Notes: generated by a model from the sequence alone, not told the origin. A stretch of DNA of 64,000 bases from Candidatus Poribacteria bacterium (GCA_965242965.1 OZ251518.1:1760001-1824000), one strand, 5' to 3'. Counted from the stretch's first letter, positions 241-16,135 are shown. A program made the numbers and translations.

Positions 241-1050
241 CTAACCGACCTCTTCGCCGTCCAATTTGCCAACGTGCAGGTCGATCTCGTCACGAGACTC
301 TATTTTATCCACCTTGCCATCTGCCATGTGAAAAATCCGGTCGGAGACATCCAACATCTTGTGATCATGCGTTGCAGTGATGATCGTCACGCCGTTCTCA
401 GCGTTGAGACGACGCAAGAGCGCGATAATCTCCAGCCCGGTTTTGGTATCCAAATTCCCCGTCGGTTCATCAGCGAGGACAATGGCCGGGTCATTTGCCA
501 GCGAGCGCGCAATAGCGACGCGCTGCTGTTGTCCACCGGAGAGTTCTAACGGCTTGTGTTGAACCCGGTCTCCGAGGCCAACAAGGGAGAGGAGTTCCAC
601 CCCGTGCTCTCGGCTATCGTCGGCACTCGTCCCGGCGAAAATCATCGGGAGAGAGACGTTCTCCAACGCCGTCATGACAGGAATCAGGTTGAAGGATTGA
701 AAGATATAGCCGATTTTGCGGCAGCGAAGCCACGCGAGTTCATACGCATCCAACTGCGCGATGTCCACTTCGTCGATATAGACTCTGCCTTCGGTGGGTT
801 TGTCTAAACCGCCAATCATGTTGAAAAGCGTTGACTTCCCGGAGCCGGAGGGGCCCATAATCGAGATGTATTCGCCGCGCTGGATCTGGAAATTTACCCC
901 GCGCAGGGCATCGACGGTAGTCGTGCCCATCTCATAACGCTTGATCAGGTTCCGGACGCGCACGGTATTCTCCTTCGGCAGGATGCGCTGGAGGCGTTCC
1001 GGTGTTTCAGCGAGGTTCGGTTGCATATCGCCATTGCCTTGCATGTTCAT
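241..1050 (-). CDS. ABC transporter ATP-binding protein, MacB/LolD type
   Basis: Walker [19 protein letters not shown], signature [13 protein letters not shown], Walker [12 protein letters not shown]-loop ATHD; AGGA RBS upstream of ATG 1050. Confidence 0.95.
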
Positions 1051-1096: not shown

Positions 1097-1564
1097 TTAC
1101 CGACGTTTGGGTAAAAATCCGAAACGTTTCTGGGGTTCCAATTCTTGCGTTACGGGCGCGTTCGCGTTGGTGTCCGTCGGGATTGCGAACCCGATGAAAT
1201 TCCGCTTGCCGAGTTGCTGCATGAACGTAAAAAGCGAGGTCTCGGCTTCCTTCCGGGTCAGCTGGTGTTGCTTTTGGATACCCTTGATGATCTGCGCGAT
1301 CGTATGCTTGCCATCGCACATCTGCCAGACAAAGGTGCCCATCGCATCCAGCACGATGACGCGTTTATTCGGGAGCATGAAAAGTTTGCTTGCGAGCCGC
1401 ACCCACAACTTGTCCTTTTGTGGCACGACAAGGGATGCTTCACCTTTGTCGTCCACCTCCCACGTGATGAGTTGATTCCGAACGGGGAACGCCTTCATGA
1501 TGCGCCCCCGCGCCATGTCAGGCCGTTTCTTCAGTTTGAGAGCATATAGCAGTCTATTTAGCAT
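1097..1564 (-). CDS. PqqD-family / RiPP recognition element (RRE)-like protein
   Basis: LDAMGTFVWQMCDGKHTIAQII...FMQQLGKRNFI fits the PqqD winged-helix consensus; ATG 1564 follows AAGGAA. Confidence 0.8.
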   Translation of the reverse strand: MLNRLLYALKLKKRPDMARGRIMKAFPVRNQLITWEVDDKGEASLVVPQKDKLWVRLASKLFMLPNKRVIVLDAMGTFVWQMCDGKHTIAQIIKGIQKQHQLTRKEAETSLFTFMQQLGKRNFIGFAIPTDTNANAPVTQELEPQKRFGFLPKRR

Positions 1565-1603
1565 TTTTTCGTTCCTTAGGTGCGCACTTTGTGGCAAACG
1601 ATG

Positions 1604-2599
1604 TTAATGGCATTGAATACTCGCTGCCACCTGCTTCACCGTGCCCTCGGCATCCACGCCGCCCACAGATTGGATGACGTAGATGCGGTTAGAATGATGG
1701 CACCGCCACAAGTGAAACACCAGCGTTGCGCGTTTTGACACCTTGTCAAGTGCCAGCACCGGCGAGAACGGCACGCTGTCGTAGAGCCGCGTCTGTTGCC
1801 CGATGAGCGTGAGTTGTTCATCATCGGCATCGGGGTGAGAGGTTACCTCAAATCCGTAGCCGCGAATCGCTTTGGCATATTTCGCGCGAAACCACGCCTC
1901 TAACGGGTTCGGTTCTGCCTTAAAATCGCCGAGCATTACCTCAGCCGGTCCGTAGCGTTCAACGCTGAGCCGCTGTTGCTCGGCAAGGATAGGCACACCT
2001 TTCGCCGCCGGGATGACATGCCGCAGCCTTGAACGTTTCACAACAAAGGCGAACAACAAATAGCCGCTCAGCAGTTTCTGCCGTTCCAATTTGTATTCGC
2101 TTGGGACAGCGAGCGCGAGGCCGTAAGCACTCCACAACGTATTCGGCGCATTGTGCTGCGTGGAAATAGAACGGAAGATGCGCAGCACAGTCGGCCGCCA
2201 ATTCTCTTTCAACCGTCCCATGACTTGGACGATGGTAATCCGTTTGCCGGCGTGTAAAATGAGTCCATTGGCGCGGATGCTCCCCTTCCAACTGAACCCG
2301 ATGACGGTGCGCCCTTTAAAGAATTCGGGTTCCTTGATAAGGGTGACATTCCGGCGGAAGGAGAGTTCCTTACCCTTTTTGTAACTCTTGCGGATGAGCT
2401 TGAAGTATTCGTCAAGCGTTGCGTGCAAGTCAGGTTTTTTCTTCCGCGTGTGCGCCCATTTGAGCTCAAGGCGTGGCATTTCCGCATCGTCAAGGCGGAG
2501 ATATCCGGTCTTCTCATCGCCACTGAGCCCGCTCAGTTCCCACTCTTTTGGAATTTCTAGTTGCGTGCCTGCCCATCCGAAAACAGTCCAGTCGTCCAT
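1604..2599 (-). CDS. Hypothetical protein with two similar halves
   Basis: 331-aa ORF with RBS, co-oriented in the operon; FGWAGTQLEIPKEW..GYL resembles WSAYGLALAVPSEY..GYL. Confidence 0.8.
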   Translation of the reverse strand: MDDWTVFGWAGTQLEIPKEWELSGLSGDEKTGYLRLDDAEMPRLELKWAHTRKKKPDLHATLDEYFKLIRKSYKKGKELSFRRNVTLIKEPEFFKGRTVIGFSWKGSIRANGLILHAGKRITIVQVMGRLKENWRPTVLRIFRSISTQHNAPNTLWSAYGLALAVPSEYKLERQKLLSGYLLFAFVVKRSRLRHVIPAAKGVPILAEQQRLSVERYGPAEVMLGDFKAEPNPLEAWFRAKYAKAIRGYGFEVTSHPDADDEQLTLIGQQTRLYDSVPFSPVLALDKVSKRATLVFHLWRCHHSNRIYVIQSVGGVDAEGTVKQVAASIQCH

Positions 2600-2669
2600 T
2601 TTTCTGTTGTTCCTAGCGGTTGTTTTCGCTTGCCTCGTCTCTTCTTGCAGGCATTAGCTAGATTTATCT

Positions 2670-2936
2670 GAGGATGTTTCATAAATCCGTTTCAATAGTT
2701 ATCCCCCCTTGGGGCAGGGCGACTACCGAAAGGCATCGGGCCCACCTCTGTAGTTCGGGATCGCCTGATCCCGAACGGGTCAGGATCAGGCGATCCTGAA
2801 CTACAGGGGGGATGCAGTCCGACAGCCAAACGCATGGCGAGGGCCTGTCCCTCGCCCTACGTGAAGGGGCGGCGTTTTTTTCACCGCAGCGCGGGGGCCT
2901 GTCACCGCGACGTTGAGCGATTTATGAAACACCCTC
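2670..2936. mobile_element. MITE-like element, copy 1
   Basis: TIRs GAGGATGTTTCATA / TATGAAACACCCTC; flanks ATTTATCT / ATTTATCC; REP-like palindromes inside. Confidence 0.75.
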
Positions 2937-3002
2937 ATTTATCCAGATTTATTCCGTAGGCGCGGTTTCAAACCGCGCCTACGGAATTTCTATATCCGCC
3001 TG

Positions 3003-4991
3003 CTAAAACGGTTTGACAATCACGGCTTTGGAGACGAGCGCGATTGCCACCGTGCCCATGCCGATTAAGCCGACACCGCAGGCGAATCCCGCCGCCAGCA
3101 CCGGGTTGAACATATACCACCGACGCATACCGAACCGTTTGATCATGTAGAACCGGCCGATAACCGCACCGAGCAGACGCGCTACCATGCTACCCGGGTC
3201 AGCCAGGGCACCACCTGCGATGCCGTAAAACCACATCGAGGGGAGTTTGAACACCCAGAGCAACCCATAAAGCGCGAGCATTGAGGTAAAGCCGGCGGAG
3301 ACATAATCGCCGCGAATTGCCTGAAGCATTTCGCTATTCCCATCCCTAAGCGACGTTTTCCACAGACATTCGTTCGTGGCGTTGATGGGCCACATCATCT
3401 GGGCAAACGGATATTGCGCGCTCGGAATTGGCGCGATCTTCCAGATAAAATGCATCACGACAATGCCGCTAACGAGCAAAATCGGCATAATCAGCAACGT
3501 GCCGGCGAGGTTTGACGTGAATGTCGTGCCGGTAAGTTCCAGCACACGCCAGCCTTGCGTGCCTCTACCGTAGTCTTCGTCGGGAAGCGGCGCGAACCAA
3601 ATGTCCACCTCTTCATATCGGCTCAAAATAAAGGTAATCTCATGCAGATACGGGATTTCAAAAAGGTCGCGGCCCAGCACACCGAACGTTCGTGCCGTGA
3701 TATACGAATTAATCGGTGTATACAGGAACGCATACCCGAGCAGGAAACTGAGTGGGAAGTTCGGCACCATCCAGTGGATAAGCCAGACGAAGCCTCCCAT
3801 GCCGATGAGCCACATCGCGCCCATGAGCCAGATCGGGAAATCACCGCGATTCGGCGGCGTTGCGAATGAACCGCGTTCGCCAGCCTTTTTGCGCGCTTTC
3901 TGCATCTTAAACAGCATCGGAATAGAGGCCGCCATCCCCACAACTGCGAAGCTGAACGATTTGCCCATCCCGAAACTCATCTCAAAGTCAAGGCTGTTGA
4001 ACAAATTAGTTGCCCGCACGTCAAGTCCCGGATTCCATTGATACAAGATTTCAGCCGGGTAAAGAATCTGCGGTTTTAAGATAAATTGCGATACCATCGC
4101 CGCGATGAACTCCGACATCATAATCGGGAACGGCATGACGAACCCGATCAGCATCTGTCCGAAGTCCGTGCGGAGCGCGAACACGCCGGTCGGCGCGAAC
4201 CCTTCGATACTCTGCGTGAAATCTATCCACGGAATCTTCAGAATCTCAATCGGCTGGCTCATCATCACGCCGGAAAGAGCCGGAACGCCGATATAGAGGA
4301 AACCCCATATCAGGCCCGCCATGGAGCCGATGGAAAAGACGCGCCACCGCCAGGTCTCCTCCTTACCGGTAGTTTCCGCGAGTGCCGTCGCGCCTTGCGC
4401 GCTAATCGGTGCCATCGGATACGGAAGCCGTTCCAGGTCTGCCGTGAGCCGGAACAAGATATACTGGCCACTCACAAACCGCAGCGTGCCGAGTAGTTTG
4501 CCAGCGAGGTAGATTGCAATCGGCAGGAACCAGTCAGGGTGCAAGAGGGTCCGCGTCAGCACCGCGGCAGAATCGCCGGCTGGCACAATCCATGCCGGAA
4601 TCTTATCGGCGATTTCATAAGAAGCCGCCTGCGGCGTATTCACGAAGTAGGCATACCAGATGAAGTTGCGGTATTGCATCCCGCTTCCGACAGCAGCACC
4701 CGTGAGGCCGAGGAGCATATAGAGCTCCTGCCGCCGGGCTGTCGTAAAGGAACGCCGCGCGAGTTCAGTAAACAGAATCACTGCTACCCACGGTGCCGCT
4801 TCCGCGCCGGATTGGCCGGATACATAACTGAGATAGATGGAGCCGGGCATCATCAGCAGCCCTACAAAGAGCGCGCCGATGAAGACTTTGACGGTGAGAC
4901 CGGACTCAAAGGTGCGGATGCCGCCTTCGATGTCGTATCGTTTCGCCCAAGCTTGCCATTCATCTGCTTGTGATACTCTTTCTCTCGCCAA
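3003..4991 (-). CDS. OPT-like (oligopeptide transporter-related) polytopic membrane protein
   Basis: 662 aa with many hydrophobic segments; ERLPYPMAPI resembles the OPT LxFP motif; TTG start after AGGAG. Confidence 0.7.
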   Translation of the reverse strand: MARERVSQADEWQAWAKRYDIEGGIRTFESGLTVKVFIGALFVGLLMMPGSIYLSYVSGQSGAEAAPWVAVILFTELARRSFTTARRQELYMLLGLTGAAVGSGMQYRNFIWYAYFVNTPQAASYEIADKIPAWIVPAGDSAAVLTRTLLHPDWFLPIAIYLAGKLLGTLRFVSGQYILFRLTADLERLPYPMAPISAQGATALAETTGKEETWRWRVFSIGSMAGLIWGFLYIGVPALSGVMMSQPIEILKIPWIDFTQSIEGFAPTGVFALRTDFGQMLIGFVMPFPIMMSEFIAAMVSQFILKPQILYPAEILYQWNPGLDVRATNLFNSLDFEMSFGMGKSFSFAVVGMAASIPMLFKMQKARKKAGERGSFATPPNRGDFPIWLMGAMWLIGMGGFVWLIHWMVPNFPLSFLLGYAFLYTPINSYITARTFGVLGRDLFEIPYLHEITFILSRYEEVDIWFAPLPDEDYGRGTQGWRVLELTGTTFTSNLAGTLLIMPILLVSGIVVMHFIWKIAPIPSAQYPFAQMMWPINATNECLWKTSLRDGNSEMLQAIRGDYVSAGFTSMLALYGLLWVFKLPSMWFYGIAGGALADPGSMVARLLGAVIGRFYMIKRFGMRRWYMFNPVLAAGFACGVGLIGMGTVAIALVSKAVIVKPF

Positions 4992-5069
4992 ATTATGTTT
5001 CTCCTATTTTTTATGTCGCAAGGCGTTGGAACAAATTATCAGACGCTTTGCGAACCGGGGGACCGCGCC

Positions 5070-5276
5070 TTACTCCCCCGACGTACCCCCGTCTCCGGAA
5101 TCGTGTTCTTCGTCTCCAGAATCTTGAAACTCTTCCCAAAAATGGGCACAGAAGATGCCGACTGTCAGCACGAGCGCGGACAACATCTGCCATTGCCAAC
5201 GGCCCTCAAGCGCGAAAATGCTGAACAGCCATAAAGCTGTGCCGAGAATAATGATAAGACTCGCTATTTTTTCCAT
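5070..5276 (-). CDS. Small two-TM protein with acidic tail
   Basis: 68 aa, AGAGGA RBS, two hydrophobic helices, then EEFQDSGDEEHDSGDGGTSGE; lies inside the operon. Confidence 0.7.
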   Translation of the reverse strand: MEKIASLIIILGTALWLFSIFALEGRWQWQMLSALVLTVGIFCAHFWEEFQDSGDEEHDSGDGGTSGE

Positions 5277-5324
5277 GCTAATTCCTCTTTTTCAGTGCGC
5301 GCCGCCCCATCGGCGAAAGCACCC

Positions 5325-5530
5325 CGTAGGCGAGACCTCCTGGTCTCGATGCATCGGTTTCGGGACTCGCCATGCGTTTGGCTGGCAGACCGCATCACCC
5401 CTGTAGATCAGGATCGCCTGATCCTGATCTGTTCGAGATCGGGCGATCTCGAACTACAAAGGTGGGTCCGATACTCATCGCATTGCCGCGTGAGAATCCT
5501 ATCGCTGCACTCCCGAACTACAAAGGTGGG
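5325..5530. repeat. REP-like palindromes (GTAGGCGAGACCTCCTGGTCTCGAT; GTAGATCAGGATCGCCTGATCCTG)
   Basis: Match families seen elsewhere in the window. Confidence 0.75.
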
Positions 5531-5583
5531 CCCAATGCCTCTTCCGCCGAGCCTGAGCGATAGGATAAACGACATGCGGCCGA

Positions 5584-8500
5584 CTAACCCGCTGACGTTA
5601 CCGCCGGTTCTAACCGCGGTGCCTCGCCTGCTTCCTCTTCGTCCGGGACAGCATTTTCGGTTCTGCCGCGTTCGTGGAACTCGGCACGGATATCAACGCT
5701 GAATGTCCGCCAGATAAGGAGCTGCTTCCGCAGCAGATTGAGGAACCGTCGGTTCACACGCTTCCACGACGCAATCTCGCCACTTTCGCGATGCACCTCT
5801 AACGTGATTTTGTAGAGGTCCTCCTCCTCGCCGCCGACTGGCGAAGTGACAAACTTGATGGACTGGCTCACGCCTAAGTCGTAAGGTGCCAGCCATACCA
5901 TCATGCCGATCTGGTAAGACTCCTCGTCTGCTTCGCTGAATGCCACCTGGTCTGTGTAGAAATCGCTCGCCGATTCGTCTGCGTGCGCCTCAAAATAGTC
6001 GCGCATGAAGACGTTCAAGCCGAGTGCTTCCTCCTCCAGCACGGTGAACGGCAGGTTGAAATGCCACACGTCGCCTTCCGGTTCTGGCAGTTTCCACTTC
6101 CGTTCGATATCCGGCACCGCCATCCGTGATGCCTTCAGCGCGGGATACAGCGTGCTGAGCAACACGACTACCATGACGACAATCGTGGCGACGACGGTGG
6201 ACATTGACGAGTAGTTCAACGTCAACCCCGCGAGCCAACCGAAGTTCACCAAGGTCGTCGCAATAGCCTGTCCCATCAGATACCCTAGCACTGCGCCGAC
6301 GATGGCGTAGACGCACGCCTCCGCAAGGAACAGGAACGCGATATGCACCGGCGCAAGCCCGACAGAACTGTAAATGCTTATCTCGCGCACGCGCTCGTAA
6401 ACGGCACCGAGCATCGTGTTTAACACAATCAGCGCGGCGATGAGAATCGGCACAAACAGATTGCCCATCCCACTGAAACTCGTCATCCCGATACTGCTGT
6501 AGAGATAGGTATCCTTGTCGCGCCCGACAAAGAAGTCCAACGCGATCCGGTTCATCAGCGGTGCCATAATCAGGTCCAACTTGTCAATCGCACCGAGTAA
6601 CTGCGGATCATCGGCTCGCGGCTCCATATTCACAGCCACGCTTCGGAGAGTGCCGCCTTGATTCATGACTACCTCGTAAGGCAGAATAGCGACGCTGTCC
6701 GGGGTGAGATGCAGATATTTCTGCAGTTCGCCTTCCAGTGTTTCGTCACCGGTTGCCCCGCGGCTCCGTTGCTGTTGCATGAGTTGGTAATCAACCGGGG
6801 TGAGTTCCTCACCATCGTTATCGGTGAGGTCCTTGAAGCCGATGCCTAGCACCCCGACGACGGTGAAGTCTGCACCGTAAACCGAGACGGTGGCTTTGCC
6901 CATATCACTTTCAGTGATTTTGAGCAGTTCCGCCATCCCTTTCGGCAGCACGATGGCATAGGGCCATTCTGTCGGCCAGGCATCCGAATCGCCCGGCTCA
7001 AACCACTTGCCGTATTGGAGGTATCTGTCAATGCCGCTGACACCGGGTTCCTGTTCATTCATACCGACGAGCATGTTCGCGGCGAAGGTTAACGCCTCAC
7101 CGGTGAGGGGATGCGTCGGCGGCACCGGGTCTGACGGATTTTGGGTGCGTGTCAATTGGACAAAGGACTGATCGCCTGTCCCAGACGACTGATACCACGC
7201 CCGCGGTGCGACAACGTTCTGCACGGTGAGAACGGGTTCTTCGTCAACCTTCTCAACAAAGCCGTCCTGCTCCAATGAAGCGAGGGCTGCCGCTGTATCA
7301 ATCGGCTGCTGCCCCTGTTTCGCCAACAGTTCGCTTTTGCGTTGAAGCAACCGTTCCAGCGCGTCCAACGTAATCTGCGTTTTCTGCATATCGTTTAGCA
7401 CAGAAGTAAGCACAGGTTCTTCCAAGGGCCGCCAGTACTGGTCCCGGATGAGGAGCCCCGTGTAGCGCGGCGTGACTTGCGGAAGGCTGGTGCGGTTCGG
7501 ATGCATGAACGTCCGCACCGATGTAAACGAGATGACGGTGAACGTCAGAATGACAAGCGTGCAACAGGTGAGGATAGTGCGTCCTTTCCGTTTCCGCATG
7601 TTGGAAATGCCGAGGCTAAACGCCGCCGCGCTAGCACTCAGCCTGCCGACATCTGCCTTGTAGACATTGCTGCCCTCTTGTCGGATTTTCTCCAATTGCT
7701 CCTCGAACTTCCGCACGATAATGCTGATGACGATTACCGTGAGCGCGAGCACAACGAACGCAATCAGGATAATCACGGGTGTCGTCGTGATTTGGAACGC
7801 GGGATGCACCTGACTTAAGAAGAAGAAGACAAGCAGGAAGATACCGAACGCACCGAGGATCTGCTTGTGGATGTTCGGAAAACCGAAGATGAGCCGTTCC
7901 ATGAAGTAGGCGAACGGCATCAGCAGCGCGAGGTAGAACATCACACCGTTGACGACATCATTTCCTGTCTGCTTGACATCCGGATAGGCGCGCGATTCAT
8001 ACCCCCACGCCGCACGCGCCAATTTCAAAGCCTGCTGATAATCGTTTTGCAGGAGTTCGGTTTCGGCTCTATCCAGATATTCGTTGGCAAATTGGTGCAG
8101 TTTATCCAGTCTGTCGCTGGAGATACCGAACCGTTTATAGAGACGGGAACGGTTTTCATCAAGCCACCACATATCACGGACAACGACGTAAGGCGTGAGG
8201 CGGATTTGCCCGTTCTCCCGAACGACGAACCCCTCACCCGTGTAAAGCGTCGGGTTTTTCATGCCGCTCTTTGTCGCTTTGATGAGGAGCAATCGCTTCC
8301 CGATTTGCCCGTATGCCATTCCCACTTTGATGCGGGTTTCCGGTTCGCTGTAAACGAGCGCGATAGGTTCAGCGGCGGAAACGCCTTCCTGTTGCCACGG
8401 TTTAGACATCCCGAACTTTTCAGGCGGACTATCCGTGAGCGCATCGTAAACCTCCAATTCGCGCAAAGTTCGCAGATACCGCTGATCTACCAGATCATAG

Positions 8501-11500
8501 ATAGTTGTTGATACACACGGGAAGGTGACAACGCGACAGCCGCGTCGGCGCGTATTGATAGGTATCTTATTCGGAAGCAACTTCGCGCCGTAATTCCCTA
8601 AATCGGGCGCGTAGACGATGTCGCCAGAATCCGCATCCAAAATGTATGCCTCCACCTCTTGCACACCGCCGAGTCTGCGCGTGGCTCTGCCTTCCATGGC
8701 GAGCCCCGCCATTTCAAAGTTGCCTTTGTTATCTCCCATGACAAACAGATCGCCGCGCACCCCCATCATCGTCTTATTCTTGCGGCGCAGCGTCAAAATA
8801 GGATAGGGGACAGGCTTATTCGGCAGTGCCGATTCGCGCGCGTCAAACTCAACGACATCGCCGAAGAGGTTGCAATAAAAATTGCCGACGCGGGCCGCCG
8901 TGGGCATCTCCTCATCTCGCAGCGCTTGGAGGAGAAGCGATGCCAGCGTCTGTGCCTGTTGGTGAAGGTTGCCGCCCTCACGCAAATCCACTCTATCAAT
9001 GGTATCCAACGGGGTATCAGTTAAGACGCGCGCGTCCTCAATCGTGGCGAACGCGATGCCGGTTTTTCCGACAAGCGTGGCGACTTCACTGTCAAACGCA
9101 ATCTTGCCCGGAATGTAGGTTTTCCACGTTTTCCCGCCGCTAGCAGAAATGGCGTTGACGAAGTTCGACGCGCCGCCGAGCCCCGCGATGCCGATAAGGG
9201 TTTTGATGTCATCAATCTCCTCCTCGGTGAAAGTATCCGGGTCTTCGTGACGGAGCCGCAACATCGCGTCCAGCTGCTCGCGGGTGCGGATATTATTCTT
9301 GCGGTTTTTCTTCGCCGTGCGGACATCGTTTCGGATGAACCGTTCAACTTCCTTCCGGACGTAGTCCATATCCTTCAGCATATCCTCAGAGGGTTCACCG
9401 CGGTTTCGCCACTGCTCAAACTGCATTTTCATCAGCCGACTTACGCCGCTGAGCCCTGTCAGTTTGCCGTAATGAGAGCTGAGCAGCGTCTCCAGCGTTT
9501 TGCCTTCCAGCGCGGCTTTATCGGAGATGCCGCTTGCGACACCCCACTGCCGCGCCATGACTGCCTGACGGATCTGGTCATCGCTCCACTGCCACAACTT
9601 CCGCACACGCACGCCGAAATCGGCATCCTCGGCGTAAGAAGCAAGTTTATTACCGATGCTGGCAAATTCGCGGCGTAACACAAACTCCGGCTGCTGATCA
9701 TAGAACCAGCCTTTATTAAATACGCCGAATTGATTGGACTGTGAAGACAAGTCGATGCTGACATAGAGGGAGGTATAGTAGCGGTTAAAAAGGTCCTGCA
9801 GCGCAATCGCCGAATCAATTTGCGCAAGTTTTCGGCTATACTCGTCCGCGTCAATCCGTATCATCTTTTCAACACGGCTTTGGATGTTGCGGAAACGTGC
9901 GTTCCGGAGAGTCAATAGGTTATCGCGCAGTAGCACCTTCGTCTCCTCATCAAGATCGGTGTTTAAGGTAGGGAGCCGCTCGATGAGGTTATCAAGCGCG
10001 ACGATATCCGACGCTGCACGCCGTTTGACGATTGCCAAGAGTTTTTCCTCTGTCATGTGCGCGGCAACGATGGAACGCATCCGAAGGCCCTCTGCCATCT
10101 CATCGGCGGAAAGGTAATTTTTGAGGATGAGTTGTTCCTCGTCCAGATACCCCCTGTCCAACGTGGCGTGCGTCGCCAGCAGGTGTTGGATGCGGGTTCG
10201 TTCCAAGCGCGCGTTCCGCAGCGCGATTTCGAAGATACTCTGCTTATCCTTGAGCAAATCAGCGATGAGGATGGCAGAATCGCTCGTGTCATCGGATTCG
10301 GTTAACCGCTGTTTGAGTTGCGCATCAATGGTGCTCAGCCGTTCAAGTCCTGCTGCCGATAGATACTGCCCATCGTAAACCACGCTGGTGGCGATTTGCG
10401 CCATGCCGATATCCTTAAGTTTTCGGATGCTCGTCTTGATTTCGTTTTCAACCTGCTCGCTGTCCCTGATTTGGGACAAGACCTTTTGCAGGAGTTCCTT
10501 TTCCCGCTGAATGGCTGTTCCGCGCGATGCGTTTGCGTCGCCGAGGACTTTCCGTGCATCTTTGACGCGGTTGAGTGCGTGAAGATCGAGATGCCGGTCC
10601 AGAATTTTTTCCGGTGTCCACATCAGTGCGAATTTCCGCTTGTCGCTCATCTCCCAGTCGGCAAGCGTCTGGTTCAGCATCTCAATTTCTGCCGTCAATT
10701 CTGGCGGCAAGTCAGCCGGCACAGGGATATCCCATCCATCTTCCCGTTCTTCAGGGAGAAGATAAGCGTCATTCGGGTGCGCGCTGTATCGGGATTGCGT
10801 GGCGTTTTCAACGCTGCTGATGAGTTTATCAACTGCCCAAGTATCCAAGCGTGCTATCGGCAGTGCCAACGTTTCAATGAGTTCTCGTTGCGCGACGCGG
10901 CTCGTATCTAACGCCACCGTGCGCACTTGTGCTAAGCGTTGGACGATGTCGCGGAGGAAGTGCGTCGTCTGTAAAGCCTCCTTCTTGGAACGCGCGAGGT
11001 TGGCCAACAGCAGACTTTTCTCCTCATCGGTGAACCCTTGCTTCTCGCGTTTTCTATTCCGGTCCGCCTGTTTTTTCTGGCGTTCAGAGAAATCGCGCTG
11101 TTTCGTATTCAAGTCTTCGATTTGCGAGCGCGTTTCTGCGAGGCCGTCTAGGGTTATCGCGAGGGAATCCAGGTCAGATTTGATAGCGTGGATACCGAAA
11201 AAGAAGTCGCCGGGCAAATCAACAAGCACGCTTCTGTCAATAGAAAGCAGCAATCGCCTGCCGAGTTCCTCGAATTCAATAATATCGGTAGAGAGCCCGC
11301 GGCGGAGTCCGTGCATCGTCGGCGTGCCGGGGGAATCGGTGTCTGAACCGACGATGTCCTGTCCGATACCTTCCATAAAGGCGCGCATGCCGGCGAGCCC
11401 CTGGAAATGTGCATCCACAGCAACAAAAAGGACAGAGCGGCCCGGACGGTATTCCGGTTGACTGAAGAGGCGTGCGAGTTCCATCAACACAGCGATACCG

Positions 11501-12915
11501 CACGTTGGATCTGCCCCGGGAGCCAGTGCCGGCACGACAGACATTGAATCGTAATAAGCAGTCAACACGACGAGTTCGTCGCGGAGCGTCGGATCACCGC
11601 CTTCCAAAAAGCCGCGGATATTCTGTCCGATGCCGCGCTCCCACGTCATCTTTCCTCTCATACGAACGTTCACATCGATACCGGTATCTGTCTCTAACAT
11701 TTCCCTTAACGCCGCGCCGTCCGCCTTGGATATCCAGAAGCGTGGGATGTTTGCGGGGACGGTGCCGAATTTATTCTCCGCCTCGCCACGAATCGTGGTT
11801 TCCGGTTCAACGAAGATAACGGCAGTGCCGCCGAGCATCGCGGCGTTGATGTAGCGGGTGCTAGAATTGAAATCGAGCAGGACTATCGCGCCTTTCGGAA
11901 TGAAGATGTGTGCTTCACTCGCGGCGACAAATTCGCCGGATTCGTCAATTTCGCCGTCCCTATTGTTATCAATGCCATCTGTTTCATCGCCGGGGATTTC
12001 ATCGGTTGCGCCATCGGCATCATTGTCAATACCGTCGGTTGCCCATCCGCGGATTTCGGATAAGAGCGGAATCTCGCCGTATTCGTCCACGGTGCCATCT
12101 TCGTCATTGTCAATCCCATCAGATGCCTTTTGGAGGTGTCCGTTGAGCACATCGTCGGTGATGCTTGCTTCGGTGATGCGGTTGCGCCGGGCAAGGGAGG
12201 TGAGGGTATCGCCATCCTGCAGTTCATACCAATAGCCGCCGATGTTCGTGCCGTTGAAGTCGGCGAGCTCCGCATCGTCGCCGTAAAGGAGCGGACCGGA
12301 CAACCCACCTGTCGGAATAAAGACGGTGCTGCCTTCAACAACAGGGGTTGCGATGAATTTGTTCTTTTCATGCGCGCGGATAATATCGGCGGAGACCTGG
12401 TAGCTATCAGCGATTTCCTGAAGCGTTTCGCCGGGGAGAACGGTGTGTTTAATGCCATCTGCCAGCAGCGAGGTGCGCACGAGGTTGGGCCAAAACGGTG
12501 TCAGTTTAAAGGTGTGCAGCACGGTCCCCTCAGCGGAAAGCACCTCAATGACACTACCCCCCCGGGCGTTCGGGAAAGTCCCGTGGTCGACTGGGACAGT
12601 GACGGTGAACTCACGACTCTCTACGTTTTGCAAACCGATTTCAACGAACCGGTCGAAGATGTATTTGCTGCCGCTCGCGGCTTGCGGGTAGCCGGTGACG
12701 CGACTCTCTAGGCTGGATAGCCGCGCGATGTCCTTCCGGAGGTTGCCGATGGACAAATCGTCTCGGATTTGAATAGCCGCGGTTTTCATCCCTACGGCTG
12801 TCTCTGCCTCTTCAACAATTTGCTGTGCATTGACACGTTCAAACGGCGTGGCAACGAAGCAAAGGCCGAGGCAGAATAGCAGAAGCAGTATCTGCACGTT
12901 ATAGCTGCGTTTCAT
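5584..12915 (-). CDS. Giant envelope protein: signal peptide, 2 LysM-like domains, DGIDND repeats, degenerate M28 peptidase-like domain with coiled-coil insert, C-terminal FtsX/MacB-type permease
   Basis: N-terminal hydrophobic signal; HTVLPGETLQEIADSY and YELQDGDTLTSLARR; 3x DGIDN[DN]xDGxxDE; LTAYYDS..APGAD..GIAVLMELAR; LNTMLGAVYERVREISIYSSVGLAP...FLAEA (FtsX permease motif). Confidence 0.85.
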   Translation of the reverse strand: MKRSYNVQILLLLFCLGLCFVATPFERVNAQQIVEEAETAVGMKTAAIQIRDDLSIGNLRKDIARLSSLESRVTGYPQAASGSKYIFDRFVEIGLQNVESREFTVTVPVDHGTFPNARGGSVIEVLSAEGTVLHTFKLTPFWPNLVRTSLLADGIKHTVLPGETLQEIADSYQVSADIIRAHEKNKFIATPVVEGSTVFIPTGGLSGPLLYGDDAELADFNGTNIGGYWYELQDGDTLTSLARRNRITEASITDDVLNGHLQKASDGIDNDEDGTVDEYGEIPLLSEIRGWATDGIDNDADGATDEIPGDETDGIDNNRDGEIDESGEFVAASEAHIFIPKGAIVLLDFNSSTRYINAAMLGGTAVIFVEPETTIRGEAENKFGTVPANIPRFWISKADGAALREMLETDTGIDVNVRMRGKMTWERGIGQNIRGFLEGGDPTLRDELVVLTAYYDSMSVVPALAPGADPTCGIAVLMELARLFSQPEYRPGRSVLFVAVDAHFQGLAGMRAFMEGIGQDIVGSDTDSPGTPTMHGLRRGLSTDIIEFEELGRRLLLSIDRSVLVDLPGDFFFGIHAIKSDLDSLAITLDGLAETRSQIEDLNTKQRDFSERQKKQADRNRKREKQGFTDEEKSLLLANLARSKKEALQTTHFLRDIVQRLAQVRTVALDTSRVAQRELIETLALPIARLDTWAVDKLISSVENATQSRYSAHPNDAYLLPEEREDGWDIPVPADLPPELTAEIEMLNQTLADWEMSDKRKFALMWTPEKILDRHLDLHALNRVKDARKVLGDANASRGTAIQREKELLQKVLSQIRDSEQVENEIKTSIRKLKDIGMAQIATSVVYDGQYLSAAGLERLSTIDAQLKQRLTESDDTSDSAILIADLLKDKQSIFEIALRNARLERTRIQHLLATHATLDRGYLDEEQLILKNYLSADEMAEGLRMRSIVAAHMTEEKLLAIVKRRAASDIVALDNLIERLPTLNTDLDEETKVLLRDNLLTLRNARFRNIQSRVEKMIRIDADEYSRKLAQIDSAIALQDLFNRYYTSLYVSIDLSSQSNQFGVFNKGWFYDQQPEFVLRREFASIGNKLASYAEDADFGVRVRKLWQWSDDQIRQAVMARQWGVASGISDKAALEGKTLETLLSSHYGKLTGLSGVSRLMKMQFEQWRNRGEPSEDMLKDMDYVRKEVERFIRNDVRTAKKNRKNNIRTREQLDAMLRLRHEDPDTFTEEEIDDIKTLIGIAGLGGASNFVNAISASGGKTWKTYIPGKIAFDSEVATLVGKTGIAFATIEDARVLTDTPLDTIDRVDLREGGNLHQQAQTLASLLLQALRDEEMPTAARVGNFYCNLFGDVVEFDARESALPNKPVPYPILTLRRKNKTMMGVRGDLFVMGDNKGNFEMAGLAMEGRATRRLGGVQEVEAYILDADSGDIVYAPDLGNYGAKLLPNKIPINTRRRGCRVVTFPCVSTTIYDLVDQRYLRTLRELEVYDALTDSPPEKFGMSKPWQQEGVSAAEPIALVYSEPETRIKVGMAYGQIGKRLLLIKATKSGMKNPTLYTGEGFVVRENGQIRLTPYVVVRDMWWLDENRSRLYKRFGISSDRLDKLHQFANEYLDRAETELLQNDYQQALKLARAAWGYESRAYPDVKQTGNDVVNGVMFYLALLMPFAYFMERLIFGFPNIHKQILGAFGIFLLVFFFLSQVHPAFQITTTPVIILIAFVVLALTVIVISIIVRKFEEQLEKIRQEGSNVYKADVGRLSASAAAFSLGISNMRKRKGRTILTCCTLVILTFTVISFTSVRTFMHPNRTSLPQVTPRYTGLLIRDQYWRPLEEPVLTSVLNDMQKTQITLDALERLLQRKSELLAKQGQQPIDTAAALASLEQDGFVEKVDEEPVLTVQNVVAPRAWYQSSGTGDQSFVQLTRTQNPSDPVPPTHPLTGEALTFAANMLVGMNEQEPGVSGIDRYLQYGKWFEPGDSDAWPTEWPYAIVLPKGMAELLKITESDMGKATVSVYGADFTVVGVLGIGFKDLTDNDGEELTPVDYQLMQQQRSRGATGDETLEGELQKYLHLTPDSVAILPYEVVMNQGGTLRSVAVNMEPRADDPQLLGAIDKLDLIMAPLMNRIALDFFVGRDKDTYLYSSIGMTSFSGMGNLFVPILIAALIVLNTMLGAVYERVREISIYSSVGLAPVHIAFLFLAEACVYAIVGAVLGYLMGQAIATTLVNFGWLAGLTLNYSSMSTVVATIVVMVVVLLSTLYPALKASRMAVPDIERKWKLPEPEGDVWHFNLPFTVLEEEALGLNVFMRDYFEAHADESASDFYTDQVAFSEADEESYQIGMMVWLAPYDLGVSQSIKFVTSPVGGEEEDLYKITLEVHRESGEIASWKRVNRRFLNLLRKQLLIWRTFSVDIRAEFHERGRTENAVPDEEEAGEAPRLEPAVTSAG

Positions 12916-13096: not shown

Positions 13097-13551
13097 GAGA
13101 ATGTTTCATAAATTCCCGTAGGAGAGACTTCCTAGTCTTGATGCAATAGGACGGTGCGCCTACCGGGGCCGCGGCGGCAGAAGGTCTCCCCTTCATCGTA
13201 GGGCGAGGGCCTGTCCCTCGCCGTGCGTTTGGCTGTCAGACCTCCTCACCTCTGTAGGTCAGGATCGCCTGATCCTGACCTGTTTGTGATCAGGCGATCA
13301 CAAACTACAGAGGTGGAAACACACATCGTGACGATGGAGATCGCGGGGGACAGGCCCCCGCGCTACGGTGAAAAAAAACGCCACCCTGTCACCGCAGGGC
13401 GAGGGCCTGTCCCTCGCCATCGTCCGCGCAATCTAACGCTCGCGGGGGCCTGTCCCGCGCTACGGGAACATCGAGACCAGGAGGTCTCTCCTACCGGAAA
13501 TCGAGCCCCGAGGTCTCTCCTACTGAACACATCGAAATATGAAACACCCTC
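13097..13551. mobile_element. MITE-like element, copy 2
   Basis: TIRs GAGAATGTTTCATA / TATGAAACACCCTC; exact 8-bp flanking duplication ATTTAATC (13089-13096, 13552-13559). Confidence 0.85.
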
Positions 13552-13593
13552 ATTTAATCAATCAGGAAGGCCGCAAATGCATCATTTTCCTTG

Positions 13594-14749: not shown

Positions 14750-15062
14750 GGCATGGCGAGGGACAGGCCCTCGCCCTACGATGAAGGGGTCGTTTTTTAT
14801 CGTAGCGCGGGGGCCTGTCCCCCGCGATCGTTGCATGGCGAGGGACAGGCCCTCGCCCTACGATGAAGGGAATCGTTTTTTCCCGTAGCGCGGGGGCCCT
14901 CGGATGCCATCCGCGCATCCGAGCGGGTTTCCCCCGCGATCGTTGCATGGCGAGGGACAGGCCCTCGCCCTACGATGAAGGGAGGCGGCCTTGACATCCG
15001 TAGCGCGGGGGCCTGTCCCCCGCGAGCGTTGCATGGCGAGGGACAGGCCCTCGCCCTACGAC
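14750..15062. repeat. Tandem array of alternating REP-like palindromes
   Basis: Repeated GCATGGCGAGGGACAGGCCCTCGCCCTACG ... GTAGCGCGGGGGCCTGTCCCCCGCG units. Confidence 0.85.
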
Positions 15063-15073
15063 TGCGGCCTCAT

Positions 15074-15883
15074 TTAACCGTAAGCACCGTGATTAAGAAA
15101 CCCTAGCAACCGACGCAACCGGGGATTCGCATCCTTGTAAACAGACATCGGCATCGAATAGTTCATAAACGGATAATACTTGTGCCCCACGAGACGGCGC
15201 GCATACGTAACCTGCGTGATATAGCGCGTCCGCTGACTCTGATTCGGACCGCCGCGATGCCAGACCTGGTTGTTGAACATCACCACGCTACCCGCTTTGC
15301 CGAGGTTATACCGGATCTTGTCGGCCCATTCCGATTCTTCCAACGCTTTCGGCGGCGACGCGCCGACGAGATGTGAGCCCGGAATCACCTCTGTCCCTCC
15401 GTGTTCAACTTCGGTGACATCGGTGAGGTAATAATTCGCCGTGAACAGCAGGACAGGCAGGCGCACGTTCGTCGGCGGTTTCCCATCAGTCACGATGTAA
15501 TGTGGGGCATCGTCTTGGTGCCACGTCGTAATCCCGCCGCCGGGGTAAGTCTGGAACGAATTGTTATGGATAACGTGGCAATTTTCGGCGACGAGTGCTT
15601 CCGCAAAGGTGACGATGGGCTCCATGTCAAACAGTCGGCGATTCGCCTCGCTGTGCTCAAACATCCGATGGCTCAGGTGCATGCGTCCACCGGGGTTGCC
15701 GCTGTTTAAGCCGTTAGGATTGTTTTCAAGGGCCCATTCCAGATCTTGGCGAAGTTGCGCGCACCAATCGGGTGGCAAAACGTCCTGCAGGAAGAGGAAG
15801 CCTTGCCGATGGAAAGTCTCCACCCATTCCTGAATTTGCGCGTCCTTGACAGTTTGATGTGCCAAGTAAGTTGTTTGTGCCAT
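15074..15883 (-). CDS. Phytanoyl-CoA dioxygenase (PhyH) family 2OG-Fe(II) oxygenase
   Basis: FHRQGFL, WHQD, GGTEVIPGSH, AGSVVMFN..WHRGGPN. Confidence 0.9.
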   Translation of the reverse strand: MAQTTYLAHQTVKDAQIQEWVETFHRQGFLFLQDVLPPDWCAQLRQDLEWALENNPNGLNSGNPGGRMHLSHRMFEHSEANRRLFDMEPIVTFAEALVAENCHVIHNNSFQTYPGGGITTWHQDDAPHYIVTDGKPPTNVRLPVLLFTANYYLTDVTEVEHGGTEVIPGSHLVGASPPKALEESEWADKIRYNLGKAGSVVMFNNQVWHRGGPNQSQRTRYITQVTYARRLVGHKYYPFMNYSMPMSVYKDANPRLRRLLGFLNHGAYG

Positions 15884-15894
15884 GTTGTTTCGTC

Positions 15895-16135
15895 CTTGTC
15901 TGAATCAGGATTTGTAAGATGAGATGATTTAAAAAGCCTCAAATTCGCGGGGGACAGGCCCCCGCGCTACGGTAGGAGAGACCTCCCAGTCTCGATGCAT
16001 GCCTAGGACAGGCCCCCGCGCTGCGAGGACAGCAGCACTCGCGGGGGACAGGCCCCCGCGCTACGGTAGGCGAGACCTCCCGGTCTCGATGCACCACCGT
16101 AGGAGAGACCTCCCGGTCTCGATGCCTCCCTAGGA
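15895..16135. repeat. REP-like palindrome cluster
   Basis: GTAGGAGAGACCTCCCGGTCTCGAT and CGCGGGGGACAGGCCCCCGCG copies. Confidence 0.8.

Follow-up and report, generated by a model that had tools for sequence, protein, structure and literature searches.

The open reading frame (ORF) at positions 5584..12915 on the minus strand of a 64,000-nucleotide stretch of Candidatus Poribacteria DNA (GCA_965242965.1 OZ251518.1:1760001-1824000; hereafter the window) encodes a protein of 2443 amino acids in which a periplasmic-type ectodomain of the M28 peptidase fold is joined to a membrane permease of the MacB/FtsX type. The canonical zinc site of the fold is missing, and a different set of polar residues, nearly invariant among relatives, stands in its place. 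Architecture and family place it as the large permease subunit in an ATP-binding cassette (ABC) machine of type VII (MacB/LolCE/FtsX-like); the fuller account given below, in which the ATPase would reposition or open a ligand-binding pocket in the head, stands in our view at about even odds. A first-pass annotation of the same DNA had described the M28-type domain as catalytically dead or repurposed. Judged from sequence, "repurposed" fits better than "dead", because the substituted pocket is, family-wide, the best-conserved part of the ectodomain and because the best sequence match of the site stretch in the Protein Data Bank (PDB) is 2anp, titled "Functional Glutamate 151 to Histidine mutant".

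The M28-type head and its remodelled site

The M28 fold of the ectodomain, proposed earlier from the sequence alone, holds up under structure prediction and superposition on M28 aminopeptidases. In Pfam, Peptidase_M28 (PF04389) matches residues 432-515 with 36.2 bits (cut-off 21.3), over profile positions 1-78 of 193 only, and PA (PF02225) matches residues 340-403 with 21.0 bits, just under the cut-off of 23.9; in the relative P0172 it reaches 24.9 bits. A PDB sequence search matches residues 446-512 to the aminopeptidase and to nicalin. For the AlphaFold model of residues 131-1330 (predicted local distance difference test, pLDDT, 82.7; predicted template modelling score, pTM, 0.62), the best Foldseek matches are all PA/M28 proteins, namely BSAP/YwaD, nicalin, transferrin receptor, 2ek8, PaAP, GCPII, and nicastrin. 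VIA-align, which serves as a second look at Foldseek's match list, gives Z 16.6 for the Aeromonas aminopeptidase 1amp, with 198 of 291 residues aligned and a root-mean-square deviation (rmsd) of 2.9, and Z 17.4 and 16.7 for BSAP and 2ek8 over 304-308 residues. The 1amp alignment pairs model residues 298..1200 with chain residues 73..285. Model residue 1200 is protein residue 1330, and since the alignment spans both of the long inserts described below, the flanking pieces form one M28 domain in the model. A glutaminyl-cyclase-like reading was rejected: the fold agrees (Z 15-15.8), but two of the three mono-zinc ligands are replaced. Glutaminyl cyclases keep an Asp/Glu/His mono-zinc site.

The canonical M28 motifs had been reported as altered to TAYYDS, GADPTCG, and DAHFQG, and all three are found where they had been placed. 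With the later IDLSS segment, the site motifs are as follows:

11545-11562, minus strand: TAYYDS, residues 452-457
11497-11517, minus strand: GADPTCG, residues 467-473
11398-11415, minus strand: DAHFQG, residues 501-506
9742-9756, minus strand: IDLSS, residues 1054-1058

The reference is the Aeromonas aminopeptidase, whose zinc ligands we take to be H97, D117, E152, D179, and H256, with E151 as the catalytic residue. In the alignment with this enzyme Y454 corresponds to H97, D456 to D99, H503 to E151, and F504 to E152, and D469 falls on D116 or D117, an ambiguity of one column. The third acidic ligand is assigned to D1055, where the family motif LDLSS resembles the LDM motif after the Glu-Glu strand of 2ek8 and the model has a strand at 1047-1055. 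The last zinc-binding histidine is assigned to D1300, where the family motif D-T-P-x-D-T (DTPLDT here) aligns with H-T-P-x-D of 2ek8 and YwaD. The five metal-ligand positions then read Tyr454, Asp469, Phe504, Asp1055, and Asp1300, so that three of the five zinc ligands are replaced and two are kept; the catalytic general-base glutamate is replaced by His503. The absence of the canonical di-zinc set agrees with the first-pass annotation, which had overlooked the fifth ligand position and its change from His to Asp1300 in DTPLDT.

The site was surveyed in 103 relatives of at least 1300 amino acids, taken as representatives at 50% identity. The most common residues, with the number of relatives in which they occur, are:

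Position 454: Y in 75, H in 8, F in 7
Position 456: D in 102
Position 469: E in 71, D in 16
Position 503: H in 102
Position 504: F in 52, C in 11, H in 10, Y in 10, G in 9
Position 1055: D in 96
Position 1277: E in 92
Position 1296: R in 98
Position 1300: D in 86
Position 1304: D in 100

The canonical M28 ligand set occurs in none of these relatives, while D456, S459, H503, D1055, E1277, R1296, D1300, and D1304 are near-invariant; the substitutions are therefore conserved among homologues and are not decay. The invariant ectodomain columns of a 46-sequence alignment (A1) include D456, S459, and H503. Two further alignments (A4 and A5) leave out the rows of locus L059, which carries a stop within the stretches concerned. 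The conservation of the replacement pocket across the family is what favours the "repurposed" half of the earlier claim. The pocket may hold a metal on other ligands, and it may be catalytic.

Layout of the protein

The frame is free of stops in translation, and the 2443-residue fusion, as first described, is a single frame with all the named motifs in place. Its parts are:

5584..12915, minus strand: whole ORF, putative large permease subunit with a giant ectodomain; full-length orthologues in 172 of the phylum's 176 genomes
12826..12915, minus strand: residues 1-30, hydrophobic signal peptide at the N terminus; Kyte-Doolittle maximum over residues 3-28, cleavage predicted
12439..12783, minus strand: residues ~45-159, M28-like segment 1 and start of the PA-like domain; profile columns 10-130 cover residues 10-159, and relatives' 2ek8 alignment begins in the equivalent N-terminal segment
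12316..12447, minus strand: residues 157-200, LysM 1 (half-profile match) within the PA-like domain; Pfam LysM, missing from the family profile
12148..12228, minus strand: residues ~230-256, LysM 2-like half-motif; Pfam LysM 17.3 bits, under the cut-off of 20.9
11941..12120, minus strand: residues 266-325, three acidic DGIDN[DN]xDGxxDE repeats; exact motif positions
11368..11895, minus strand: residues 341-516, remainder of the PA-like domain and M28 segment 2 (Y454, D456, S459, D469, H503, F504); Pfam PA and Peptidase_M28, aminopeptidase alignment, conservation
9799..11367, minus strand: residues 517-1039, insert 1, 523 residues, all-helical; missing from the family profile, AlphaFold model
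9619..9798, minus strand: residues 1040-1099, M28 segment 3, strand ending at D1055 (IDLSS); profile columns 327-385, strand 1047-1055 in the model
9178..9618, minus strand: residues 1100-1246, insert 2, 147 residues, helical; profile mapping and model
8905..9177, minus strand: residues 1247-1337, M28 segment 4 (E1277, R1296, D1300, D1304); profile mapping, 2ek8 and YwaD alignments, structural alignment reaching residue 1330
7960..8904, minus strand: residues 1338-1652, two beta-sandwiches and a three-helix bundle; AlphaFold pLDDT 90.8, pTM 0.88
7711..7956, minus strand: residues 1654-1735, three extra transmembrane (TM) helices; hydropathy, invariant E1673, H1704, P1705, and A1706
6121..7578, minus strand: residues 1780-2265, MacB/FtsX-type permease (TM1, putative periplasmic core domain, TM2-4); Pfam FtsX, matches to LolC, MacB, YtrF, and LolF
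5587..6120, minus strand: residues 2266-2443, conserved tail, predicted to be cytoplasmic; family alignment, invariant P2289, F2290, W2384, R2396, and W2402

A family profile built from 34 short relatives of 1440-1530 amino acids runs colinear along the protein in six pieces:

Columns 10-130: residues 10-159
Columns 118-148: residues 197-227
Columns 147-317: residues 341-516
Columns 327-385: residues 1040-1099
Columns 391-984: residues 1247-1849
Columns 980-1469: residues 1899-2419

This mapping resolves the protein into a family of about 1500 amino acids plus five insertions, which lie at residues ~160-196 (LysM 1), ~228-340 (LysM 2-like motif and acidic repeats), 517-1039, 1100-1246, and 1850-1898.

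In the hydropathy profile a signal sequence at the N terminus is followed by three TM-like stretches within 1654-1735 and by four FtsX/MacB TMs at ~1780-1800, 2150-2172, 2187-2215, and 2237-2260. TM1 of MacB usually has its N-terminal side in the cytoplasm. Because of this orientation and of a K/R-rich linker before TM1, the N-terminal ~1650 residues are predicted to be periplasmic and the tail of residues 2266-2443 cytoplasmic. A Kdo-transferase gene within the window fits a diderm cell.

Permease, membrane-proximal domains, and operon

The C-terminal part of the protein groups with known permeases. Pfam FtsX (PF02687) matches residues 2155-2265 with 47.7 bits (cut-off 25.5), the PDB sequence matches are LolC (E 2.1e-9) and MacB (E 9.9e-8) and also YtrF and LolF, and NCBIfam and the PDB search together put the region with LolC, MacB, FtsX, YtrF, and LolF. 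The coupling to an ABC permease that had been proposed is thus a covalent join to a MacB/FtsX-type permease, with a LolD/MacB/FtsE-like ATPase encoded in the same operon. The tail (2266-2443) has no Pfam or NCBIfam match.

Between the head and the membrane, the model of residues 1338-1652 has strands to about model residue 207, followed by helices at 237-258, 264-285, and 289-314. The first sandwich is transthyretin-like: 3e8v aligns with it at Z 9.0, domain II of carboxypeptidase D at Z 8.9 (rmsd 2.2 over 78 residues), and 5aq0 at Z 8.6; the 3e8v and carboxypeptidase D matches cover model residues 11..129. The second sandwich and the helix bundle gave no telling structural match. The only Foldseek matches of this model, weak ones to pilins and adhesins (TMq 0.2-0.32), were read as generic sandwich likeness and set aside.

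Four genes follow downstream on the same strand:

3003..4991, minus strand: polytopic membrane protein of 662 residues, weakly OPT-like; follows the permease in 74 of 80 loci
1604..2599, minus strand: 331-residue protein (p331); syntenic, no Pfam or NCBIfam match
1097..1597, minus strand: PqqD-like protein, 166 residues in the ORF as listed; Pfam PqqD
241..1050, minus strand: ABC ATPase of LolD/MacB/FtsE type; Pfam ABC_tran 121 bits

All four are found in the same order in 62 of the 80 related loci, and the ATPase gene is syntenic in 67. The six loci without the 662-residue gene are L009 (a 2.9-kb contig), L077 (whose contig ends 221 nucleotides past the permease), and L043, L044, L046, and L073. 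The five genes of L067 lie end to end or overlapping, none more than 39 nucleotides from the next, and the PqqD-family gene is translationally coupled. The dehydrogenase and PhyH genes upstream are common to close relatives only and lie outside the module.

The 662-residue protein of the window has no Pfam or NCBIfam match. Its nearest Atlas clusters are named "peptide transporter family" (0.98), with OPT on 15-33% of members, and one of seven orthologues matches Pfam OPT (PF03169) over positions 134-620 of 623 with E 2.4e-5 and 23.7 bits, below the cut-off of 25.8. The p331 protein resembles only unnamed Atlas clusters from Armatimonadota and Poribacteria. The PqqD-like protein matches Pfam PqqD (PF05402) with 42.4 bits (cut-off 23.4) over positions 4-67 of 67, and NCBIfam as well. 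The listed ORF of this protein begins with TTG, and nine of ten aligned orthologues start at or after residue 10, most of them near residue 12 (that of L079 is longer); translation probably begins with the ATG at residue 12. For the ATPase the best NCBIfam model is LolD (235 bits), followed by DevA, YbbA, MacB, and FtsE, all under their equivalog cut-offs.

In all six loci from outside the Poribacteria (L075-L080), a small FtsX-only protein (214-316 amino acids) and an ATPase are encoded beside the large permease. The genome under study has an orthologue of the small protein 1.28 Mb away (48% identity, E 3.2e-42), adjoining a second ATPase gene:

G000:C1:3046624-3047283 (L081:1486-2163): small FtsX-only permease (225-255 amino acids, tiny periplasmic loop); L081:2064-2924 is also given for this site

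The window ATPase is 70-74% identical to the ATPases of the short-form modules and the distant ATPase 56-64%, and by these identities the window ATPase is the orthologue of the module ATPase and the distant one a paralogue. The module appears to be split in two in Poribacteria. From the small FtsX protein beside the short forms and the distant orthologue in the same genome, a LolCE-like heterodimer of the large permease with the small one is plausible by analogy.

Distribution of the family

A search with the whole protein returned 633 proteins at E <= 0.001; the 120 that were listed are 2378-2474 amino acids long and at least 70% identical, and the named proteins among the matches listed are from Candidatus Poribacteria. 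Residues 131-1330 match 172 of 176 Poribacteria genomes (E <= 1e-10), comprising 131 of the 133 of high quality and spanning 30 of 31 genera; counts across the genomes of one phylum are not independent observations. Searched against representatives at 50% identity, residues 400-1599 matched 2322 proteins with E <= 0.001, a number that falls to 707 with E <= 1e-10 and to 190 with E <= 1e-30. Most are 1450-1700 amino acids long and are matched in two to four stretches. In 28 relatives that were scanned, FtsX is found in all, Peptidase_M28 in 22, and LysM in one (P0123, Poribacteria-like); in three the M28 match is contiguous, over profile positions 1-180 or 1-182 of 193.

The basic family has about 1500 amino acids, and named short forms occur in Armatimonadota (including Fimbriimonas sp.), Latescibacteria, and Gemmatimonadota. 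The short-form ectodomain matches 120 of 151 evenly sampled Armatimonadota genomes (E <= 1e-30). The Poribacteria form is this short form with the addition of LysM, three acidic repeats, the 523-residue insert, and the 147-residue helical insert. Family members bear automatic names only in databases; the short forms are labelled "M28 family peptidase", "FtsX-like permease family protein", or "ABC-type antimicrobial peptide transport system permease". In the literature searched, which left most subscription journals beyond its scope, no paper on an M28-FtsX fusion was found. The sequencing runs listed for the sequence are of DNA or unknown type, several labelled sponge metagenome, and none of those listed is RNA.

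Other variants were also seen. N-terminal extensions of ~1100-1200 amino acids occur in P0238, P0246, and P0270, with Big_5 Ig-like domains in P0238 and P0246 only, as scanned, and P0207 has a C-terminal extension of ~770 amino acids that ends in a WCX domain. Some Poribacteria carry a second paralogue (~2560 amino acids, 61-63% identical; L043, L044, L046, L073), with L042 and L046 on one contig, and the genomes of one Poribacteria family have two to five matches each to residues 131-1330.

LysM modules, acidic repeats, and helical inserts

Two LysM-like domains had been described in the N-terminal part. The first clears the Pfam threshold: LysM 1 (PF01476, residues 157-180) scores 29-36.7 bits (E 1.1e-6 to 4.1e-9) against a cut-off of 20.9. 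The second (~230-254) stays below that cut-off at 17.3 bits when residues 225-345 are scanned alone, although residues 150-345 scanned alone give two LysM stretches (E 4.1e-9). Both are half-profile matches, LysM 1 covering positions 1-24 of 43 only and LysM 2 the first half of the profile. The three acidic repeats are present as first reported, at residues 266-278, 294-306, and 313-325; they match the end of PF11617, "putative metal-binding motif", in three stretches with E 0.002-0.004, below the cut-off. By their Asp/Asn/Gly pattern these repeats may bind Ca2+.

Both features belong to one lineage. In regular-expression searches the acidic repeats were found in all 122 Poribacteria long forms, with two or three copies, and in none of 209 other members, and the LysM start motif in 111 of the 122 and in none of the 209, which answers in the affirmative the earlier question of lineage specificity. 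More distant Poribacteria lineages have one to four acidic repeats. LysM modules and acidic repeats together are likely a peptidoglycan tether.

The M28 site had also been described as split by a coiled coil of about 500 residues. The interruption is real, a 523-residue all-helical insert at 517-1039, but the canonical heptad pattern is confined to two short stretches. In our own crude heptad scan, with a threshold at the 99th percentile of shuffles, only 569-605 and 806-836 exceed that threshold. The modelled helices lie at 534-552, 569-618 (50 residues), and 630-703 (74 residues, the longest), followed by a small beta element at 722-729, short helices between 738 and 835, and helices at 854-873, 878-918, 937-983, and 1023-1045, the last of which leads into the strand that ends at D1055. 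At 0.15 nm per residue, by arithmetic and not as read off the model, the longest helix would measure ~11 nm. The region reads as a multi-helix arm and not as an established two-stranded coiled coil, and a stalk that spans the periplasm, as the first-pass annotation proposed, is at most a conjecture. Insert 2 (1100-1246), which the first-pass annotation had missed, is also helical in the model. Insert 1 has no Pfam or NCBIfam match, and insert 2 no meaningful one.

Insert 1 is kept in all 18 mapped Poribacteria loci with a length of 495-545 amino acids. In the most distant orthologues its identity is 31-34%, where the core keeps 63-68%, and gaps touch no more than 41 of its 523 columns. Fast sequence drift at a kept length fits a spacer or arm whose length matters. 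The junction itself is an insertion hot spot: at profile columns ~307-344, inserts of at least 100 amino acids occur in 34 of 211 members of at least 1400 amino acids, among them an F5/8 type C (discoidin) domain in P0126 (residues 351-459) and a 466-residue insert in P0208. At the second junction (columns ~377-392), 6 of the 211 have inserts of at least 100 amino acids. A BLASTP comparison of the Poribacteria insert 1 with the ~160-residue insert at the same site of an Armatimonadota relative (L076) found no similarity (best E 3.5). The long helical insert is lineage-specific, being found in Poribacteria only and lying outside the family profile, again in line with what had been suspected.

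Proposed mechanism and alternatives

PMC12646458 describes type VII systems, four of them in E. coli, as transmitting ATP-driven movement to periplasmic domains (mechanotransmission) with no pumping across the inner membrane. On the strength of family membership, the operon ATPase would hydrolyze ATP in the cytoplasm and move the periplasmic domains of the Poribacteria protein in the same way. These domains would form a tower of ~1650 residues, made up of the PA and M28-fold head, two beta-sandwiches, and the three-helix bundle, and would be anchored by the three extra TMs ahead of TM1, the periplasmic core domain, and TM2-4, with the ~180-residue tail in the cytoplasm. The pocket (D456, S459, D/E469, H503, D1055, E1277, R1296, D1300, D1304) would most likely bind a ligand, either a peptide or an amino-terminal group, and the ATPase would reposition or open it. 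The candidate partners are the operon ATPase, the OPT-like transporter, the 331-residue protein, and the PqqD-like peptide-binding protein, and the small FtsX-only permease 1.28 Mb away is probably also used. By their names and synteny, the OPT-like and PqqD neighbours point to peptides as the currency of the system. In Poribacteria the LysM and acidic modules and the helical arm suggest anchoring to, or reaching through, peptidoglycan. This ATPase-driven type VII machine, with a repurposed ligand-binding M28-type head and its operon partners, is an account that we would credit and doubt in equal measure. The analysis shows the architecture and fold, the substitutions and their conservation, the synteny, and the distribution; the ligand, the OPT coupling, the topology, and the roles of LysM and the inserts are parts that we infer.

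Several observations weigh against this account. The topology is based on a crude hydropathy scan, and the placing of the conserved residues along one pocket is taken from their equivalence to the aminopeptidase site. A polar His/Asp/Ser/Glu/Arg set so strongly conserved would suit a binding site no better than a catalytic one. MacB_PCD (PF12704) reaches only 15.3 bits against a cut-off of 27, although relatives pass over the same stretch (P0123 with 28.1 and P0126 with 40.1 bits). The heptad scan lends no support to a classical coiled-coil stalk. The OPT assignment of the 662-residue protein is weak, a lead and not a membership. By tblastn, p331 and PqqD are found in only two and one of the six non-Poribacteria loci, respectively, and may not be core, and the paralogue group (L043, L044, L046, L073) has no operon partner within 10 kb.

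The same residues could form a new catalytic site and not a receptor, one that hydrolyzes an envelope substrate extracted or presented by the ABC engine, and we regard this as a serious though minority possibility. In one version His503 would act as the general base with a single metal on Tyr454, Asp/Glu469, Asp1055, and Asp1300; in another, without metal, the chemistry would fall to Ser459, His503, and Asp456. Peptide products would be imported through the OPT-like partner, and the whole would be a fused analogue of YbbAP-TesA. The histidine at the general-base position in 102 of 103 relatives, the invariance of D456 and S459 in the 46-sequence alignment, the 2anp E151H mutant titled "functional" as best PDB sequence match, and the OPT-like gene directly downstream in 74 of 80 loci all speak for catalysis, as does a type VII transporter of E. 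coli paired with a hydrolase, as reported in PMC12646458. Yet three of the five canonical metal ligands are lost, position 504 is variable (F52, C11, H10, Y10, G9 of 103), and position 454 is not invariant (Y75, H8, F7). It is unlikely, in our estimate, that the head is instead a pseudo-enzyme that binds or gates partner proteins, so that the machine regulates cell-wall hydrolases in growth or division. Such a head would parallel the degenerate LytM domain of EnvC on FtsEX, as well as nicalin, nicastrin, and transferrin receptor, which are among its closest folds (Z 16.6, 15.4, and 15.4), with nicalin also ranking second among the PDB sequence matches; FtsEX-EnvC provides an established precedent among type VII systems, and the Poribacteria form carries LysM modules. 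However, LysM is absent from all 209 non-Poribacteria members, so that binding of peptidoglycan does not characterize the family; the operon contains no conserved hydrolase gene; and pseudo-enzymes usually keep no invariant polar set at the former active site.

The PqqD-family protein in the operon, translationally coupled in L067, brings to mind the export and maturation of a ribosomal peptide, with PqqD binding the leader, the ABC machine exporting, and the M28-like head trimming outside; ABC transporters do, as is generally known, accompany many peptide-natural-product clusters. This is very unlikely here. No radical SAM, cyclase, other maturase, or precursor gene is present, and the five genes of L067 abut with gaps of at most 39 nucleotides; PqqD is found in only one of the six non-Poribacteria loci; the near-universal presence in the phylum is unlike that of a natural-product cluster; and MacB-type permeases are not known, in general or from PMC12646458, for substrate transfer across the inner membrane. 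An assembly or gene-calling artefact that joined separate genes would explain the unusual length and nothing further, and we give it practically no credence: 172 of 176 genomes, many of which are single-contig assemblies, have unbroken frames of ~2400-2550 amino acids, at least 120 database homologues have 2378-2474 amino acids, and the family profile is colinear with the protein.

Other features of the surroundings

Short palindromic repeats resembling repetitive extragenic palindromic (REP) elements fill the unusually long intergenic gaps in and around the operon:

1-240: REP-like repeats
2600-3002: REP-like repeats
4992-5583: REP-like repeats
13100-13590: REP-like repeats
14750-15075: REP-like repeats
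~15945-16000: REP-like repeats

They are of at least three kinds, a GC-rich hairpin in nine copies, a related hairpin in six, and a ~100-nucleotide element in three; at orthologous loci such as L067 the gaps are only 25-39 nucleotides. After the OPT-like gene of three of the six non-Poribacteria loci stand genes with a prepilin-type N-terminal methylation motif and DUF1559:

L075:9096-9848: prepilin/DUF1559 genes
L076:16898-19013: prepilin/DUF1559 genes
L080:11816-13607: prepilin/DUF1559 genes

This adjacency may be chance; such genes are common in the phyla of the three loci. One further ORF of the window was noted, in a region where either strand may be the coding one:

16788-20396, minus strand: ORF of 1202 amino acids, without Pfam or NCBIfam match, overlapping plus-strand ORFs of 216-425 amino acids

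Rfam gave no match across the whole 64-kb window.

Significance and comparison with known systems

There are few type VII ABC systems, and every one characterized so far has brought a new envelope process to light: efflux, lipoprotein release, control of division hydrolases, or lipid hydrolysis. To these the present family contributes a head derived from M28 and fused in cis, whose conserved pocket is not a zinc site; its gene is close to core in two little-known phyla, one of them the dominant uncultured symbionts of sponges. A bolder version, which we consider rather improbable, is an unrecognized type VII class with a re-invented aminopeptidase active site, working as an ATP-driven periplasmic enzyme or extractor that feeds peptide products to a dedicated OPT-like importer. 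On that version, near-universality in Poribacteria and presence in about four-fifths of the sampled Armatimonadota would indicate a core envelope task, and the insertion hot spot would tune the envelope layer or the ligand that is reached. Nicastrin, nicalin, and transferrin receptor, in which the fold lost its zinc and became a binding head on a membrane complex, would have a bacterial counterpart in this head, and the protein illustrates how one loop of a catalytic fold can, in nature, accept inserts of up to ~545 residues. The short form occurs in cultured Armatimonadota, which makes the function experimentally reachable.

With the PA-M28 aminopeptidases (BSAP/YwaD 6hc6/6hc7, 2ek8, and 1amp), the ectodomain shares the fold (Z 17.4, 16.7, and 16.6; 2ek8 profile match E 1.5e-14), the order of motifs, Asp456, Asp469, Asp1055, and the TPxDT motif. 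Those enzymes are secreted, whereas the present head is fused to a membrane permease; it also differs from them in the three replaced zinc ligands and catalytic glutamate, the inserts of 523 and 147 residues, and the LysM and acidic repeats in its PA domain. A peptidase-fold domain is likewise fused to an ABC transporter subunit in peptidase-containing ABC transporters (PCATs). There the peptidase is a cytoplasmic C39 cysteine peptidase, the exporter fold is different, and the ATPase is fused; here the M28-fold domain is predicted to be extracytoplasmic, the permease is of MacB type, and the ATPase is separate.

Nicalin of the BOS complex, nicastrin of gamma-secretase, and transferrin receptor have in common with this protein an M28/PA fold that lacks the zinc set and sits as a head on a membrane complex (nicalin Z 16.6 and PDB sequence match E 3.1e-5; nicastrin and transferrin receptor Z 15.4). 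The beta-sandwich resembles chain B of BOS complex entries at Z 7.2, a level common for unrelated folds. The membrane partners are unrelated, there is no evidence of shared descent beyond the M28 superfamily, and here the replaced residues form an invariant set. The type VII ABC systems MacB, LolCDE, FtsEX-EnvC, and YbbAP-TesA share with the family the FtsX-type TM2-4, a LolD/MacB/FtsE-like ATPase, and probably a periplasmic domain between TM1 and TM2, and the small FtsX-type permease beside the short forms resembles the LolC-LolE pairing. A hydrolase-fold module, predicted to be periplasmic, is associated with the transporter, as TesA is with YbbAP or EnvC with FtsEX (PMC12646458). In contrast to these systems, the accessory module here is fused in cis, ~1650 residues long, and M28-derived, three extra TMs and a 180-residue tail, predicted to be cytoplasmic, are present, and conserved genes for a MacA-like adaptor or a LolA-like partner are missing near this permease. 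By analogy of logic, the nearest known systems would be YbbAP-TesA and FtsEX-EnvC, with the zinc-less M28 heads of eukaryotes also close.

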